Source of the DNA: a virus
DNA length: 64,000 nucleotides
Reading direction: 5' to 3' (one strand)
IMG/VR virus record: IMGVR_UViG_3300050011_000393
Coordinates: 32,668-96,667 of that record
Below are positions 137-63,055 of this stretch, one piece after another. The notes below the pieces were generated by a model that saw only the letters and a program-made list of their open reading frames with translations, was not told the DNA's origin and searched no databases. The first letter of the stretch is position 1. Every line of letters starts with the position of its first letter. The position numbers and the translations under genes were made by a program.

Positions 137-155
137 GACTAAACCATCCATAAGT
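137..155 (+). promoter_or_regulatory. Phage late-promoter-like motif GACT-N8-CATAAGT
   Basis: GACTAAACCATCCATAAGT, intergenic, one of 11 perfect copies. Confidence 0.75.
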
Positions 156-1611: not shown

Positions 1612-1649
1612 ACAACTTATTACAGAAACTGACTAATCAAACCATAAGT
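1612..1649 (+). promoter_or_regulatory. Extended late motif ACAACTTATTACAGAAACT-GACT-N8-CATAAGT
   Basis: 23-nt upstream part identical to copy at 63018. Confidence 0.75.
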
Positions 1650-3223: not shown

Positions 3224-4104
3224 CGGACCTGGTGATCGGCTTCGCCGCAAATTTCACCTGGAAAGACCTCGAACCCTTCGCTGTTTCTCTTGCCCGATCA
3301 GGGTATACAGGAAAAAAAGTTTTGTTCGCGCAACGGTTGACTCAAGAGGCATGCGACTTTTTGACGTCTTTCGGCTTTGAATTACTTCCTCTTCCCGTGC
3401 TTGAGTACTCCGACCCTGAAATTACGAAGGGCGGGTACTTCGCTTACGTGGCGCGCTTCCTCTTGATTCATCGCTACCTGTACGACAACCCCGATTATAG
3501 ATTTGTGGTGTGCGCCGATACGCGTGACGTCATATTCCAGCACGACCCGATGGCATGGATCGAGAAAAATATCGGCGACAAAGGTATCGTCGCGGCGTCC
3601 GAACATATTTATCACTGGGCCCAAAAAGGAAACACTGACTGGGTCATGAAGAATTTCAAGGAAGTCGACTCTTGGATGATGTCTCAGCCCGTGTATTGTT
3701 CTGGTCTGATCTCGGGGCGCGCAGACTACATCCGAGACTTGGCCATGAGCATTTATTTGATGGGCCGCGCACTAAGCGGAAATACCTGGGGAGCAGACCA
3801 GCCATCATATAACTCAATCATACACCAGAAAGCGTACGCGGACGCAACTCTGGTTCCATCCATGTCCGATGCGTACTGCCTACACTTGGTAGTGGTGGCT
3901 TTTGAAGAATATCGCAAAATGATGACCGATGCTCCCCCTCCAGTTCAGTTTGGGACCTGCTCGTCTGATGGCATCAACCCGCCTAATATGTGGGACTACG
4001 ACCTTCGGGACCTGTCTAATTTCTCGGTCATTCACCAATACGACAGAATGCCGAAGCTGGCCGAACAGATTCGCGCGAAATATAAGATGGGTTCGGAAAA
4101 GTGA
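3220..4104 (+). CDS. glycosyltransferase-like (nucleotide-diphospho-sugar transferase)
   Basis: CADTRDVIFQHDP, CSG...G, ADQ..YN, VIHQYDR motifs. Confidence 0.8.
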   Translation: MTDLVIGFAANFTWKDLEPFAVSLARSGYTGKKVLFAQRLTQEACDFLTSFGFELLPLPVLEYSDPEITKGGYFAYVARFLLIHRYLYDNPDYRFVVCADTRDVIFQHDPMAWIEKNIGDKGIVAASEHIYHWAQKGNTDWVMKNFKEVDSWMMSQPVYCSGLISGRADYIRDLAMSIYLMGRALSGNTWGADQPSYNSIIHQKAYADATLVPSMSDAYCLHLVVVAFEEYRKMMTDAPPPVQFGTCSSDGINPPNMWDYDLRDLSNFSVIHQYDRMPKLAEQIRAKYKMGSEK

Positions 4105-4121
4105 CTTGTTCCTCCATAAGT
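4103..4121 (+). promoter_or_regulatory. late motif GACT-N8-CATAAGT
   Basis: GACTTGTTCCTCCATAAGT overlapping upstream stop codon. Confidence 0.75.
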
Positions 4122-11504: not shown

Positions 11505-11523
11505 GACTTCTTTCCCCATAAGT
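11505..11523 (+). promoter_or_regulatory. late motif GACT-N8-CATAAGT
   Basis: GACTTCTTTCCCCATAAGT. Confidence 0.75.
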
Positions 11524-17051: not shown

Positions 17052-17070
17052 GACTTATTCAACCATAAGT
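17052..17070 (+). promoter_or_regulatory. late motif GACT-N8-CATAAGT
   Basis: GACTTATTCAACCATAAGT. Confidence 0.75.
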
Positions 17071-22594: not shown

Positions 22595-22647
22595 AAGAGT
22601 TTGGCGCTTTAAGACTTTTCATTACATAGTTAGTATAGGAGCGTGAC

Positions 22648-22845
22648 ATGGAGCGGTCACCAATCTGCCCGAACTGTCTCTCGAAGTTTAATGATATTCG
22701 AGGGTGCATTTACGTCGACGGCAAAGTGACAGGCCGCCGATGCGAAGATGATTGGCATCGAGGAATAGGGTACGATCCCAACAAATGGGACCTAAGCGAG
22801 TTCGATACTGAATTTTTATCTGAGCAGAAAGTTTCTTCAAGGTGA
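22648..22845 (+). CDS. small Cys/His protein with LSEFDTEFL motif
   Basis: AGGAG RBS; CPxC...C...H. Confidence 0.55.
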   Translation: MERSPICPNCLSKFNDIRGCIYVDGKVTGRRCEDDWHRGIGYDPNKWDLSEFDTEFLSEQKVSSR

Positions 22846-22848
22846 CTT

Positions 22849-23121
22849 GTGACAGATTTCGAGACGCTGGTAATAAAAGAACTTGGCGACATTCGGGCAA
22901 TCGGCACGGCCACCGCGCAAAGAGTCGAGTCACTGGAGAATCGGCTATTCGATGGAAATTCCAGCGTAGTGAGCACTCTGCAGGCCGACATTCAAGAAAT
23001 TAAAGACGACCGCAAGTCCGATGCACGCTGGAGTCGAATACACAACGTGGCACATTACAGCTTGACGCCTATCGTAGTTGCTCTCCACGCCATTGCTCGT
23101 CATTTTGGAATCGAAATTTAA
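22849..23121 (+). CDS. coiled-coil plus C-terminal membrane segment protein (holin/XhlA-like)
   Basis: Coiled coil followed by hydrophobic C-terminus. Confidence 0.45.
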   Translation: MTDFETLVIKELGDIRAIGTATAQRVESLENRLFDGNSSVVSTLQADIQEIKDDRKSDARWSRIHNVAHYSLTPIVVALHAIARHFGIEI

Positions 23122-24479
23122 TTCAAAATTCCCCAGAATTTGCGCTCGGCGGCAGGCGTTTTAGGCAAACGCTTAACGCTGGTTATATCCGCGCGCACCA
23201 AGAAATATCGGCCAGTAGGAAAATTCACCCGGACGATTACGCCTTGTCGATCAATCTTCGTCACTGTGCCACAATATTTCGCCGCGTCTCCCGCTAGGAT
23301 TTCGACAAAATCTCCGCCATGAACCCCCAATAAAGTTGGGGGATTGTGCCCACCCATCATTTGGAGCACGTCTGCATGTGGAACCTCGACGGCATGCATG
23401 AATGTGCCCTCGTCGTCGCAGACTGTAGCCATTTCTGCAATTCCTCGAATCCGAGTCAATTTGCGCGTCAGAGCGGCCGAGGAACTCCGCGCGAAGATAT
23501 ATCCAAATGCCAGTTCGCCATCGGCGTTCAGCGGCGCGAAAATTTGCGCGGGCTTCTTGCCGAAAATGCGTTTTCCTTGTTCGCGGAGCGTCGGCATAAT
23601 TTGCGCCATGCGGTGCTCCGACGAGATCTCCAACATGCACCACGGCGTGTCCTCGAGGCTATCGATGCGGCCGAACGACACGAGCGGAGAAGTCTCCAGC
23701 GGCGGCGCGGCAAAGCGCATAAATTTGACGCGCCGGTTTCGTGCCTGGCACCGTTTGCTGAGTCCTGCGCCAGTCAGAGAAGCCTGGTGAGTCAAACTGC
23801 GGAGATATGCGCCGACGGCAACGGCCTGTACATTCTTGTCCGCAAGAAGTTTCTCGATCACGGGTCGAAAGATTTTACGGACGGCAGGGGTCGGCATAAG
23901 GAAATATCGGGCCACGTCCGAATAGTTCTGGGTCTCGGCATAGGCGACGATCATGTCCGTCAAGGACCCATGTTCCGTGGATTCTACGCCAGCTTTGCGG
24001 AGAATAGGTCGCAGAATCTCCGCATCCGGTTTCACGCCCAACAAGATCAAGGACCCAATGGACTGTTCGATGATGCGCAAATTTTGCCATACCCTTGTTT
24101 GTATAAAGCCGTGAACCTGGCCGATGAAACTCTGCGATTTGCCCAAGAGCCAATATTCGGCGAACAGCTCCTGAAACTCAGGCCGCAGGCGTTCGAGCAA
24201 CGGAATTAATTTGTCAGGATAATCACGCGCGAACGATTTGAAGTCGATGATGCTGCTACTCTCAGGGAGAGTCTCGGCGGACAGCAGAGGATTCTCTTCA
24301 TTGCGATTAAAGGCTTCGTAACTCGCAGCGTCAGAGACGTGGTCCATGTAGGATTGCACGCCCTGGGTACCATCCCCCTTCATGCGCGCTTTGCCGCGTA
24401 ACCACTTGCCGCCCCAAGCGCCGTAACTTCTCCGGCCTAACCCCCGAGGTGCCCGCCACCCGCACGAATATGTCTTCAT
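23118..24479 (-). CDS. tandem sigma70-region-4-like HTH fused to NusG/RfaH-like NGN + KOW domains (transcription regulator)
   Basis: LERLRPEFQELF..YWLLGKSQSFIGQVHG...V; second HTH YAETQNYSDVARYF..PTPAVRK; NGN-like PWCML...FAP...FGYIFAR...LTRIRGI; KOW GDFVEILAGDAAKYCGTVTKID. Confidence 0.75.
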   Translation of the reverse strand: MKTYSCGWRAPRGLGRRSYGAWGGKWLRGKARMKGDGTQGVQSYMDHVSDAASYEAFNRNEENPLLSAETLPESSSIIDFKSFARDYPDKLIPLLERLRPEFQELFAEYWLLGKSQSFIGQVHGFIQTRVWQNLRIIEQSIGSLILLGVKPDAEILRPILRKAGVESTEHGSLTDMIVAYAETQNYSDVARYFLMPTPAVRKIFRPVIEKLLADKNVQAVAVGAYLRSLTHQASLTGAGLSKRCQARNRRVKFMRFAAPPLETSPLVSFGRIDSLEDTPWCMLEISSEHRMAQIMPTLREQGKRIFGKKPAQIFAPLNADGELAFGYIFARSSSAALTRKLTRIRGIAEMATVCDDEGTFMHAVEVPHADVLQMMGGHNPPTLLGVHGGDFVEILAGDAAKYCGTVTKIDRQGVIVRVNFPTGRYFLVRADITSVKRLPKTPAAERKFWGILN

Positions 24480-24784
24480 AGATTTCTCAGCCCCTTGATT
24501 TTCTTCTGTGCGATTTTCCAGTATCGATTTACCATTGTTTCAAAAACCGCGCCGTGTTCCAGCAGAGGCTCGGCCACATGTAACATCTCGTGGACCATGG
24601 TCTTTCCCCAGCGTTTGTGGCCCGCGTTTATAAAAATCACGGGGAGCATGAAGTCGTTGTCGAACAAGGTGACACCATTGCAGCGGGGAATCCAGGGGTC
24701 GTCAATGACGATGACGACCGCTGACGGGAGATTATTCTTCCAAATGATTTTATTGAGTTGCTTGTATGCGGTTTCTGGCCTCAT
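24476..24784 (-). CDS. SprT-like HExxH zinc metallopeptidase
   Basis: YKQLN...W...LP, TMVHEMLH, EHGAVF. Confidence 0.8.
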   Translation of the reverse strand: MRPETAYKQLNKIIWKNNLPSAVVIVIDDPWIPRCNGVTLFDNDFMLPVIFINAGHKRWGKTMVHEMLHVAEPLLEHGAVFETMVNRYWKIAQKKIKGLRNL

Positions 24785-41716: not shown

Positions 41717-43023
41717 TGTATATTTTTCCTGGTCGGATTATCCAACTGGCGCGATGGACTGTAACTCCACACGGGCATTTGCTGCGTGACGGCAAGCCTG
41801 TTGCGGACATCAGGTACAAGGCGGCCAAGGAGCAGATTCAATTCGTGCTGGAGGCCCTGAACGCCGCCGAGGAGAAGCGATGAGCACACAGACATGCACG
41901 GAGCACCCGACAGAGGATTCACTACGTCGCCGCCACGCGCGCTGCATCCGGAGAATCATTCTCAAGCATCTCGGCGGCTTTACTTTCACCGAACCGGACG
42001 GGTTGCCGTTTGATACCGACCACGCCCAGACCAGCACCCGCTCCGAACGTCGCCGGAAGAAACTAGGGCGTGCGTAATGTACGAGCGCATTCTTCTTTCG
42101 GTCGACCTAGTAGGCGCTATTGCTGTGATGGTCGAGGCGGCTTATTACCGTAATCAATTTGTCTCCGGTTGCGGATGCATTTTGGCCTTGACAGCCTTGT
42201 GGTTGTTTAGTAGGATTCTCAAAGATTAAGGAGGCACCATGAGCAAGGAAAGTAATCTCAGCGCATCAGTGGCGGAACTCGAAACGGCGTTCAATCGCAC
42301 TGCCGAAGCGCGCGGCAAACTGCAGATCTCGATTGTCGCGGCCATGGATCAAGCGGCCGTTCTCGACAAGGCCATGGCAGGCTATCGCCGCGCCGTAGAT
42401 ATCCTGACCGCAGAAGTTCACGCGGAGGCCGTATGATCTTAGAGCGCGCGGTCTACCGGGATGAAACCGCACGATGGTACAAGAACGGGGAAGAATTCAA
42501 AACCCCGGGCGTCACCGCCACCAGTTATCCGGAAGCCTTCGAATTGTTGTACGGACATTCCCCCTTCATGCCGCCGTCCGTACGCGCCCCGCACAGAGAT
42601 ACGGTGCTGGCGTGAGCGAGACCTTCTGGACCTTACTGCGCGACCAGGCGCACTGGGAGTTTGAAATTTTTCTGATGCTGCTGTTCGACGGCATCATCGC
42701 GGGAGTGTGCTGGCCTTTTCTTCGCAAGCACTGGGGTCATCATATTGCCCGAGATCACGCCGCCGCCGCGGTGTATGATTGGTCGATGTCTCCTGCAGCC
42801 ATAGCGGCAAGTCATTTGAAGAATCCTCCCGACCCATGCTTTAGTTGCGCTGGTTCGACCGTGCTGCTAGACAATTCGGTAGTAATCTGCAAGGAGTGTG
42901 GGCACGTTACAGTGCCGTCGAAATAGACTTTCAGTAAATGGCGTGTTTTCAACATTTGTTGAAATAGGGTGAAAACCCGCAAAAAACATGTGACAACCCC
43001 AGAGACTTTGAACTGACATCTCA

Positions 43024-43053
43024 TTACAGAAACTGACTTATCAAATCATAAGT
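43024..43053 (+). promoter_or_regulatory. extended late motif TTACAGAAACT-GACT-N8-CATAAGT
   Basis: GACTTATCAAATCATAAGT. Confidence 0.75.
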
Positions 43054-45959: not shown

Positions 45960-46535
45960 ATGCGTTTTTACTCTTATTTGTGGCTTCGAGAAGACGGGTC
46001 CCCATACTATGCGGGAAAAGGCTCAGGTAATAGGGCGTACAAAAGTCATAGACATCGCGGGCTTTGTCCACCAAAAAATCGAGATTTGATTCTTGTGTTT
46101 TTTCATGAATCGGAAGATGAGGCTTTTGGCTCTGAGAGAGCGTTCATTCGCTGGTTCGGCCGCAAAGACTTGGGTATGGGGTGTCTTATAAATCACACGG
46201 ACGGCGGAGATCAACCGCCGAGCGCGAAAGGCCGAAAACGGTCTGCAGCGTTTATTCAAAAAATGAGAGATCGAACTCCAACCATCCCCACGCCCGCAAG
46301 TAGAGAGAAGAATCGGATTGCGCATTTAGGACGAAAGCACACCCAAGAATCAAAAAAGAAACAGTCAGAGAAAATGATGGGGCGGTTGAAATCGGAGGAG
46401 ACCAAAGCAAAAATGTCTTTGGCCCAGATAGGAAATTCTAAATTTAAGGGGCGACATCATACCGCCGAGACCAAGGCTAAAATGTCAGCCATTCGATTTG
46501 AGCGTTACGGAAAAGGAGCGATATGTCGAAATTAG
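45960..46535 (+). CDS. GIY-YIG-like homing endonuclease with NUMOD3 repeats
   Basis: FYSYLWLREDGSPYYAGKG..R, E..FI..FGRKD, N.TDGG, HTAETKAKMS. Confidence 0.88.
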   Translation: MRFYSYLWLREDGSPYYAGKGSGNRAYKSHRHRGLCPPKNRDLILVFFHESEDEAFGSERAFIRWFGRKDLGMGCLINHTDGGDQPPSAKGRKRSAAFIQKMRDRTPTIPTPASREKNRIAHLGRKHTQESKKKQSEKMMGRLKSEETKAKMSLAQIGNSKFKGRHHTAETKAKMSAIRFERYGKGAICRN

Positions 46536-48130
46536 TAAAACATGGAGCAGAGGCCCGCGAGGCTATTTTAAAGGGGGTCGATTTTATAGCCGACGTAGTT
46601 GCTCTGACTGAAGGACCTCGCGGAAGAAATATTATTATGGGACAACGCGCTTTAGGCCAATCACCTCGCATAACTAAAGATGGAGTAAGCGTTGCGAATT
46701 ATGTTGACCCCTCAGATTCCACGGAGCAGATGGGCGCGGATTTAATTCGAGAAGCGTGTCAGAAAACGGATAACTCTGTTGGGGATGGGACTACCTGCAC
46801 CGCCGTTCTTGCTCGCGCTATGGTACACGCAGGGTTTGATCTGATTGATAAGGGCGCTAACCCTATGGCGATAGAGCGCGGGATTCATAAGGCGACCGAT
46901 GTCGTCATTTCTCGTATTCAAAAAATGGCTGTTGAAATCACACCAGAGAAAGTTTTTCATGTCGCAACAGTCTCGGCTCATGGCGACACCGAAATTGGTC
47001 GCTTAGTCGCAGACGCAGTTCAGAAGGCAGGGAAAGACGGAGTAGTGACGGCGGAACCCTCCTCAACCTCCGCAACTTATGTGGAGACCGTTGCAGGACT
47101 GGAGCTCGAAAAATCTAATTTGGTCTCCCCCGCCTTTATCACACACCCTGAAACTATGTCTGCGGAGCTTTCGAATTGCCATATTCTTCTCTGGGAAGGC
47201 GTGATTGCCACTGCGAAGTCCGTCGTGCCGATATTGAAACAACTCAAGGATTTGCAAGACTCTGGCGCTGGCGGCGCGCTGCTAATTATTGCGGGCGGGT
47301 ATGAGGCCGAAGCCTTGTCTTGTATCATCAACAACAAGATCAGCCTCAAGCTGCCTTTGATAGCGGTCAGGATGGAAGCCTACGGAGACCGCCGCAAGGA
47401 GGTCATGCGGGACATCGCGGCATTGACTGGCGGCAAGGCGTTTACAGAAGACCTAGGGCTGAAAATCGATAACGTGAAGTTCGCGGAACTCGGCCAGGCG
47501 CGCAAGGTCGTCACCACCATGGCGAAGACCCAGATCCTCGGCGGCAAGGGCAAGCAGGATGAGGTTGCGGGGCGCGTGGCGCACATTCAAACCCTGATTG
47601 AGTCTGTCTCACCAGCCGAACGCAGTCCGTTGCGTCAGAGGCTCGCTGCGCTGCTGGGTGGCATCACTGTGATCAAGGTCGGGGGCGTAACCGTCACCGA
47701 AATGGAAGAGAAGAAAGACCGCGTCGTGGACGCGCTCTCGGCCGCCAAGGCTGCAGTGGAGTCTGGCATCGTTCCTGGCGGCGGCACTGCGCTCCTGCAT
47801 GCAGCGAAAGTTCTTGATGAGCTGGCGGTTCCTGAAGCCGAAGTTGCGGGTGTGCAGGTAGTGCATACCGCGTGCCATGCAGTTACCAAACAAATTGCAG
47901 CCAATGCAGGTCTCGACGGCGAACTGATTATTGCTCAATTATTTTTATCGCCCGGGGAGCAAGGCTATAACGCCTTCACGGACAAGTTTGAAGACCTCGT
48001 CGAGTCAGGCATCATCGACCCCCTGAAGGTCGTGGTCGAGTCCTTGAAAAACGCTTCGGCGGTCTCATGCTCGATTCTTACCATGGGTGCGACGATCAGC
48101 GAAATCAGACAGGAGAAATCGAATGGCTAA
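46523..48130 (+). CDS. groEL: chaperonin GroEL
   Basis: GPRGRN, ITKDGVSVA, GDGTT, IKVGG.T..EM.EKKDR, GIVPGGG, GIIDP. Confidence 0.97.
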   Translation: MSKLVKHGAEAREAILKGVDFIADVVALTEGPRGRNIIMGQRALGQSPRITKDGVSVANYVDPSDSTEQMGADLIREACQKTDNSVGDGTTCTAVLARAMVHAGFDLIDKGANPMAIERGIHKATDVVISRIQKMAVEITPEKVFHVATVSAHGDTEIGRLVADAVQKAGKDGVVTAEPSSTSATYVETVAGLELEKSNLVSPAFITHPETMSAELSNCHILLWEGVIATAKSVVPILKQLKDLQDSGAGGALLIIAGGYEAEALSCIINNKISLKLPLIAVRMEAYGDRRKEVMRDIAALTGGKAFTEDLGLKIDNVKFAELGQARKVVTTMAKTQILGGKGKQDEVAGRVAHIQTLIESVSPAERSPLRQRLAALLGGITVIKVGGVTVTEMEEKKDRVVDALSAAKAAVESGIVPGGGTALLHAAKVLDELAVPEAEVAGVQVVHTACHAVTKQIAANAGLDGELIIAQLFLSPGEQGYNAFTDKFEDLVESGIIDPLKVVVESLKNASAVSCSILTMGATISEIRQEKSNG

Positions 48131-49492: not shown

Positions 49493-49511
49493 GACTAACG
49501 CTTTCATAAGT
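49493..49511 (+). promoter_or_regulatory. late motif GACT-N8-CATAAGT
   Basis: GACTAACGCTTTCATAAGT. Confidence 0.75.
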
Positions 49512-52613: not shown

Positions 52614-52632
52614 GACTTCTTAAACCATAAGT
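52614..52632 (+). promoter_or_regulatory. late motif GACT-N8-CATAAGT
   Basis: GACTTCTTAAACCATAAGT, ATG only 2 nt downstream. Confidence 0.75.
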
Positions 52633-53888: not shown

Positions 53889-53907
53889 GACTTTCTTCTC
53901 CATGAGT
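53889..53907 (+). promoter_or_regulatory. late motif, one mismatch (GACT-N8-CATGAGT)
   Basis: GACTTTCTTCTCCATGAGT. Confidence 0.65.
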
Positions 53908-56314: not shown

Positions 56315-56333
56315 GACTATTCTTGCCATAAGT
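56315..56333 (+). promoter_or_regulatory. late motif GACT-N8-CATAAGT
   Basis: GACTATTCTTGCCATAAGT. Confidence 0.75.
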
Positions 56334-59787: not shown

Positions 59788-59806
59788 GACTTCTCTTTTC
59801 ATAAGT
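59788..59806 (+). promoter_or_regulatory. late motif GACT-N8-CATAAGT
   Basis: GACTTCTCTTTTCATAAGT. Confidence 0.75.
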
Positions 59807-63017: not shown

Positions 63018-63055
63018 ACAACTTATTACAGAAACTGACTTACCATTCCATAAGT
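63018..63055 (+). promoter_or_regulatory. extended late motif
   Basis: ACAACTTATTACAGAAACTGACTTACCATTCCATAAGT. Confidence 0.75.

Follow-up and report, generated by a model that had tools for sequence, protein, structure and literature searches.

NusG/Spt5 is, to our knowledge, the only transcription factor universal to life. The NGN domains of NusG and RfaH dock on the clamp helices of RNA polymerase (RNAP), at a site also used by sigma region 2, and promoter DNA is read by the helix-turn-helix (HTH) elements of sigma region 4. The specialised NusG paralogs we know of are recruited by single-stranded DNA or RNA signals, and never by a built-in reader of duplex DNA. Described paralogs respond to an element in the non-template DNA strand (ops) or to RNA, and carry no additional DNA-binding domain (PMC7819879, PMC7593976). 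The Q antiterminators (Q21, Q82, Q-lambda) form a nozzle at the RNA exit channel and have neither an NGN nor a KOW domain (PMC9388147). In phage T4, gp33 and gp55 occupy the flap and clamp-helix sites of the host core RNAP at a minimal late promoter (PMC7824862). The gene analysed here lies in a stretch of 64,000 nucleotides (the window), comprising bases 32668-96667 of a single viral contig of 96,667 bp (IMG/VR record IMGVR_UViG_3300050011_000393) rated 97% complete. It encodes a protein of 453 amino acids (aa) in which a sigma-4-type HTH module is fused to a NusG-type NGN domain and a KOW motif. Fold, profile and family data bear out the architecture that a first-pass annotation had proposed from the nucleotide sequence, namely tandem sigma-4-like HTHs followed by NGN and KOW.

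With RfaH, LoaP, UpxY, ActX and TaA, the protein shares the NGN-KOW core. RfaH-type paralogs serve horizontally acquired DNA, and by analogy a site-specific recruitment near operon starts would be expected here. In contrast to these paralogs, only the phage protein carries an N-terminal module of ~200 residues with tandem sigma-4-type HTHs, and its KOW domain is predicted as a beta-barrel, whereas that of RfaH is an alpha-hairpin. The likeness to the Q antiterminators is confined to the HTH, the profile PF06530 scoring 11.6 bits, which is below its cut-off. The sigma region-4 fold is shared with extracytoplasmic function (ECF) and 'minimal' phage sigmas, but here it is N-terminal, duplicated, not accompanied by region 2 and followed by a NusG C-terminus. 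By analogy, the protein would be likened either to RfaH and Q, with site-specific loading near operon starts, or to T4 gp33 and gp55, with use of the flap and clamp-helix sites. In the literature search, no published description of a NusG fused to sigma-4 HTHs was found, and neither a DNA-binding domain nor a sigma-4 partner of NusG is mentioned in reviews on its paralogs or on jumbo-phage transcription. The architecture thus appears to be undescribed, in agreement with the earlier statement that it was not recognised from described phage regulators.

The open reading frame (ORF) contains every peptide quoted in the first-pass annotation and is a genuine, conserved gene. Among 5.8 billion proteins, a word-indexed search recovered 152 metagenomic homologs (E ≤ 0.001); identity is 50-75% for the best 120 of them, at 84-100% length coverage. 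Many of the homologs come from contigs of 96-99 kb, and a few bear the automatic label 'NusG' of the Joint Genome Institute (JGI). An alignment of 42 sequences of the family (A1) has 51 invariant columns. Translation probably begins at the first ATG, because the N-terminal block MK(S/T)xSCGWR...LGRRS is kept in many homologs; this ATG overlaps the stop codon of the upstream gene (ATGA). No prophage copies of the gene were found in 185,579 species genomes. The phage Tunturi_3 (97.6 kb, similar GC content) was considered as a close relative and rejected, as its gene order differs and tblastn against its phage collection gave no copy.

For structural comparison, an AlphaFold2 model was built on alignment A1 (predicted local distance difference test, pLDDT, 78; predicted template modelling score, pTM, 0.63). 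When it was compared with the PDB by Foldseek, NusG, Spt5 and RfaH were the only top matches (E 4e-6 to 1e-4, probability 1.00), with the whole targets covered. Boundary alignment (VIA-align) placed NGN and KOW at residues 273-438, and all 50 of the 50 matches listed belong to the NusG/Spt5/RfaH family. The NGN domain has the expected alpha/beta fold with the order beta1-alpha1-beta2-beta3-alpha2-beta4-alpha3, and shows IFAP...FGYIFAR where NusG has V.VP...FPGYV.V. The KOW domain was recovered at residues 388-440 and modelled as a beta-barrel by AlphaFold2; weak Pfam KOW matches occur in several family members. On the sequence level, a profile of the C-terminal module including stand-alone relatives matches NusG of A. 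aeolicus (E 7.5e-5) and of E. coli (E about 1e-3). The Pfam NusG profile PF02357 does not match the window protein; among the stand-alone relatives, P0197 reaches 22.5 bits (cut-off 22.2) and P0185 17.3 bits. By fold and profile, the 453-aa protein is a member of the NusG/Spt5 family.

In the N-terminal half, the fold search assigned HTH-1 to sigma region 4, and the HTH of sigma-70 region 4 is present. Among viral predicted structures, phage sigma factors come closest, and the neighbours in the ESM Atlas are Sigma70_r4 clusters. HTH-2 is a confident three-helix unit in the model and can be aligned to HTH-1 in the same register (hhalign P 0.004). The equivalent segment of the stand-alone relative L016 matches Sigma70_r4_2 (E 4e-4), and weaker HTH matches occur at this position in further family members. 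The second unit is therefore probably sigma-4-like. The residues Q127, T128, R129, Q132 and R135 in the recognition helix of HTH-1 and R201, K202 and R205 in that of HTH-2 are nearly invariant, and in alignment A1 both recognition helices stay nearly invariant among members down to 50% identity. Sigma region 2 was not found in the 453-aa protein, which has no Pfam sigma match and gave sigma-4 only in the fold search. Without region 2, the protein does not qualify as a member of the sigma factors.

The modular build of the protein emerged from an exhaustive HMMER search of 1.84 billion representatives, in which residues ~43-250 and ~266-450 match separate families. The former match a family of stand-alone proteins of ~245 aa. 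The latter match proteins of 190-480 aa from their residue 2 onwards, which bear unrelated C-terminal extensions. The stand-alone N-module is present in 61 IMG/VR loci and the stand-alone NGN-KOW protein in 24, often on shared contigs. Of the records with an N-module that are at least 90% complete (jumbo phages of 300-463 kb), five of five also contain an NGN-KOW gene, each in a single copy. The reciprocal search added one 99%-complete record, one 76%-complete record and the cultured Tunturiibacter phage Tunturi_5. Thereby, both halves were found as separate genes in 7/7 complete or near-complete jumbo-phage genomes tested, Tunturi_5 included. In this phage, gp346 (PP885688.1, 301753-302487; L095 3995-4729) is a full-length stand-alone N-module with 57% identity to P0147, and its annotation as 'exonuclease' is probably wrong, while the NGN-KOW protein is gp25, which carries the label 'transcription antiterminator'. 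In L022/L089, both genes are on the same strand, with 1.7 kb between them. In L094, the gene of a 178-aa protein that has nothing but the sigma-4-like HTH is followed, in the order of the fusion and with an ATGA overlap, by an NGN-KOW gene of 186 aa. Such recurrence of the same modules in three arrangements is strong comparative evidence that the two halves act together. These split counterparts, which the first-pass annotation had missed, give the strongest indication of a joint action.

In 21 of 24 loci, some of which are near-identical, a clamp-loader homolog immediately precedes the stand-alone NGN-KOW gene. The order in the split-system loci (L072-L093; L001 5054-7203) is primase, exonuclease, clamp loader and NGN-KOW, and the genes overlap in Tunturi_5. 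This synteny hints at a link between replication and transcription like that of T4 late transcription. The comparison of the split form with the T4 system of gp55, gp33 and the gp45 clamp, where two factors likewise come from separate genes, is a functional analogy only, as gp55 is sigma-2-like and not NGN and gp33 does not bind DNA. A clamp-loader homolog was not found in the genome with the fused form. The recognition helices of the split-system phages differ from those of the fused clade. Both split genes are intein targets in some phages, a frequent fate of conserved and important genes. The stand-alone N-module P0238 has its HTH-1 interrupted by a LAGLIDADG-type intein exactly within the conserved motif LLxK|TQ, and a long NGN-KOW gene (L022:3847-6114) has an intein-like insert after KOW. 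The C-terminus of stand-alone N-modules (..LGEFRIDV.., e.g., L016, P0147) and the N-terminus of stand-alone NGN-KOW proteins (MILEYGD.., e.g., L072, P0202) each resemble the fusion junction LVSFGRIDSL, and the split proteins may pair through such junction-like strands.

The genome surrounding the fused gene encodes a DNA polymerase, a primase-helicase, a UvrD helicase with an intein, RecA, ERF, a terminase, an SU10-type portal and a GroEL-like chaperonin. Sigma regions 2 (Sigma70_r2) and 4_2 gave no match in the whole 97%-complete genome, T7-type RNA polymerase (PF00940) was not found among its large ORFs, and the beta'-type motif DFDGD is absent from every ORF over 200 aa. The earlier remark that the window holds no other recognisable sigma factor or RNA polymerase can now be extended to the entire 96.7 kb. 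The 453-aa gene belongs to a minus-strand block together with an integrase-family gene and a lytic transglycosylase gene, and this block is free of the motif described below. Its location in a motif-free block on the opposite strand is the position expected of an early regulator.

The bipartite motif GACT-N8-CATAAGT, noticed already in the first-pass annotation, is real, strand-specific and kept in relatives carrying the gene. With at most one mismatch it occurs 13 times in the window, with 0.63 copies expected, and in the form GACT-N8-CAT(A/G)AGT it occurs genome-wide in 14 copies on the plus strand and in none on the minus strand, and thus opposite to the 453-aa gene. The extended consensus is aaAa..aGACTt.tc...cCATAAGTagag, with an A-rich stretch upstream and a conserved AGAG directly downstream, and start codons follow 9-12 nt downstream. 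As a rule, copies fill the intergenic gap, starting 0-5 nt past the stop codon of the preceding gene and leaving 2-30 nt to the start codon of the following one. They head the virion and late gene blocks of the plus strand and are the only conserved intergenic signal of the genome. Being the single such signal, in one orientation and at the heads of late blocks, the motif is the most likely target of the HTHs. It does not fit the -10/-35 geometry of sigma-70 promoters, and a sigma-70 promoter scan of three regions stayed at shuffle level and gave no systematic relation to the motif. Given the nearby start codons, its appearance is closer to that of a compact phage promoter than to that of a leader element. 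In three copies (1615-1649, 43019-43053 and 63021-63055), the identity extends further upstream (TTACAGAAACT before GACT), and two of them also have ACTTA just before TTACAGAAACT. The core of the motif reads as a short inverted repeat, ACT(T)...(A)AGT, which in some copies reaches 6 bp, and might conceivably form a hairpin in single-stranded DNA or RNA.

In the relatives L002-L006, the motif is kept and always lies on the strand opposite to the homolog; L007 has the variants CATAAAT and CATAGAT. One copy of the window is degenerate (Table 1), and the equivalent site in L002-L006 carries an exact or near-exact motif. This copy heads two small plus-strand genes (22648-23121), the second of which has a stop codon overlapping that of the 453-aa gene. 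No terminator was found between these small genes and the 453-aa gene. Judging from this arrangement, motif-driven transcription could run antisense through the regulator gene and provide a negative feedback.

Table 1. Features of the 453-aa gene, its upstream neighbour and the motif GACT-N8-CATAAGT in the window.
Feature	Position	Strand	Residues	Remarks
Whole gene (P0001)	23118..24479	-		453 aa; sigma-4-type HTH module plus NusG-type NGN and KOW
N-terminal tail	24348..24479	-	1-44	Basic, Arg/Gly/Trp-rich; predicted disordered (pLDDT <50)
HTH-1	24036..24227	-	85-148	Sigma-70 region-4 fold; recognition helix HG.IQTR.WQ.LR nearly invariant
HTH-2	23844..23963	-	173-212	Probable second sigma-4-like HTH; R201, R205 and P206 invariant
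Helix/linker	23730..23831	-	217-250	AVG.YL..LTHQASL.G.GLSKR...R
NGN domain	23340..23651	-	277-380	Fold search and boundary alignment
KOW beta-barrel	23160..23318	-	388-440	GDFVEIL.G.A..YCGTV; profile and structure alignment
C-terminal tail	23121..23159	-	441-453	(R/K)xFWG; F448 and G450 invariant, W449 nearly invariant
Upstream gene	24476..24784	-		102 aa; HEMLH metalloprotease-like (SprT/zincin-like) motif; translationally coupled to the 453-aa gene (ATGA)
Motif	137..155	+		Exact copy
Motif	1631..1649	+		Exact copy
Motif	4103..4121	+		Exact copy
Motif	11505..11523	+		Exact copy
Motif	17052..17070	+		Exact copy
Motif	22613..22631	+		Degenerate copy (CATAGTT), facing the 3' end of the 453-aa gene
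Motif	43035..43053	+		Exact copy
Motif	49493..49511	+		Exact copy
Motif	52614..52632	+		Exact copy
Motif	53889..53907	+		One-mismatch copy (CATGAGT)
Motif	56315..56333	+		Exact copy
Motif	59788..59806	+		Exact copy, 10 nt before the ATG of the portal gene
Motif	63037..63055	+		Exact copy

The protein is best read as a putative late-gene activator or antiterminator. With moderate confidence, we favour a phage-encoded specialised NusG paralog that would be recruited by double-stranded DNA, direct the host polymerase to the late motif or modify it there, and then travel with it. While the domain folds, the protein family, its split and adjacent forms and the motif statistics are direct results of the analysis, the binding steps and the link between protein and motif are what we infer. 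Judging from its fold, the NGN domain would dock on the beta' clamp helices of the multisubunit host RNAP, as those of NusG, RfaH and Spt5 do. The two N-terminal HTHs, as the sigma-4 fold and the near-invariance of their recognition helices suggest, would bind a specific duplex sequence, and binding at GACT-N8-CATAAGT would bring RNAP to this site or capture it there. The factor could then ride with the polymerase through its NGN domain and exclude host NusG, and hence Rho-assisted termination, and KOW may serve a downstream partner such as the ribosome. Its action may fall mainly at initiation, in a sigma-like manner, or just after it, as in the loading of Q or RfaH.

Several observations weigh against this interpretation. 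Regarding the protein, the full-length sequence gave nothing above threshold against Pfam, PHROGs and NCBIfam, a faint KOW signal being the only trace, and as a single sequence it gave noise only against PDB sequences. Of the matches anticipated in the first-pass annotation (Sigma70_r4 twice, NusG NGN and KOW), those to NGN, KOW and HTH-1 were obtained, and HTH-2 stayed below threshold. Regarding the motif, its predicted co-occurrence with homologs holds for L002-L006, with the variants of L007, and fails further out: no clear copy is seen in L008, the most distant relative, and exact matches in the split-system loci are at chance level (3 in 1.44 Mb). A quick look at enriched upstream words in these loci returned only GTATTATA- and GGTATAAT-type words and no bipartite motif. 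Motif and gene are thus found together within one related phage clade only, possibly by shared ancestry. The half-sites of the motif are spaced 13-14 bp from centre to centre, whereas one helical turn is canonical. Intrinsic terminators in three regions are neither enriched nor systematically placed near the motif, so that a need for antitermination is not visible. Finally, a conventional sigma factor is present in three of the five complete split-system phages, which argues that the pair is not a simple sigma replacement there. Of the overall interpretation given earlier, a sigma substitute or a DNA-loaded antiterminator, the architecture and the absence of recognisable sigma and polymerase genes have stood; a simple sigma replacement is argued against in these split-system phages, and the function of the fused protein we infer.

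The initiation sub-case of the favoured reading is a sigma surrogate. The HTHs would read the promoter and perhaps also contact the beta flap, and the NGN domain would sit in the clamp-helix site of sigma region 2. Host core RNAP would initiate at the motif without region 2, the protein staying on for elongation. The absence of a detected sigma in the whole genome would suit it, as would the promoter-like character of the motif (14 copies in one orientation at gene boundaries, A-rich upstream and AGAG downstream), the short gaps without room or signal for a separate sigma-70 promoter, and the resemblance of the split arrangement to the T4 flap binder gp33 and clamp-helix binder gp55 (PMC7824862). 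We nevertheless regard the surrogate as unlikely, as no known NGN domain melts promoters, a sigma-2-like element is lacking (the fold search gave sigma-4 only), the domain order is the reverse of that in sigma, and complete split-system phages frequently have a sigma factor of their own.

Both modules match RNAP-contacting parts, which would equally suit a factor of host shut-off: the sigma-4 module would bind the beta flap and not DNA, and together with NGN it would clamp both sigma sites and displace the host sigma, with another factor reading the motif. In all sigma factors the sigma-4 fold contacts the flap tip, a site that gp33-type proteins occupy without binding DNA (PMC7824862). Yet the predicted recognition helices carry polar and basic residues that are nearly invariant, a pattern typical of DNA readers, and no other candidate reader of the motif was found in the genome, which makes such a competitor rather improbable. 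A still poorer candidate is a generic phage NusG, in which NGN-KOW would confer Rho resistance on all phage DNA and the HTH module would be an unrelated fused regulator, e.g., a repressor of early genes. NusG paralogs are commonly anti-Rho factors (PMC7819879), and the link to the motif is correlative only, but the modules co-occur in 7/7 complete genomes and are adjacent or fused, in three independent arrangements. An accessory factor of an unrecognised phage-encoded RNA polymerase with a T7-promoter-like motif is very improbable: although the contiguous motif of ~27 bp, the adjoining AGAG and a start codon 9-12 nt away resemble a single-subunit polymerase promoter, and several large ORFs (486-1464 aa) have no annotation, the large ORFs gave neither a PF00940 match nor a DFDGD motif, the unannotated ones sit in the tail and ejection region, and NGN domains are known to bind multisubunit polymerases only.

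Further features of the gene and its neighbourhood were noted. The disordered N-terminal tail, rich in Arg, Gly and Trp, is reminiscent of arginine-rich RNA-binding motifs. Residues 217-250 are the most conserved segment of the protein and are common to fused forms and stand-alone N-modules. At the C-terminus, split forms end with R.(F/Y)YY where the fusion has (R/K)xFWG. The proteins P0208 (716 aa) and P0249 (1077 aa) each match residues ~142-194 eight times, and this segment, which runs from the last residues of HTH-1 into the first part of HTH-2, could be similar to a repeat unit found in other proteins. The unit of orf60, the HEMLH-motif protein and the 453-aa protein is kept in six of seven related viral loci, and the HEMLH gene appears to be fused to its neighbour in P0037; one possible role of the HEMLH protein would be that of a protease acting on a host transcription protein. 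Elsewhere in the genome, the UvrD-type helicase (L010:4927-7293) carries a Hint/intein insert, a bacterial-type RecA is encoded at L009 14423-15418 (+; E 8e-131), and a full-length GroEL/Cpn60-type chaperonin at 46523-48130 (+) of the window (Pfam E 3e-55).

A large and widespread family in soil phages (fused) and jumbo phages (split) appears to couple NusG to sigma-4-type HTHs, and this coupling points to an undescribed way of reprogramming the host RNAP. It could explain late-gene expression from a non-canonical motif in phages that have neither a sigma factor nor a polymerase. With low probability, one polypeptide, or a pair of proteins in jumbo phages, might even permit promoter-specific transcription by bacterial RNAP without sigma, the tandem HTHs reading the promoter and NGN occupying the sigma-2 site before the factor acts in elongation or antitermination. 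If true, this would merge the roles of initiation and elongation factors, which are kept apart in cells (sigma then NusG; TFE then Spt5). As the split version is carried by the cultured pair of Tunturi_5 and its host Tunturiibacter psychrotolerans X4BP1, the proposed coupling is directly testable.

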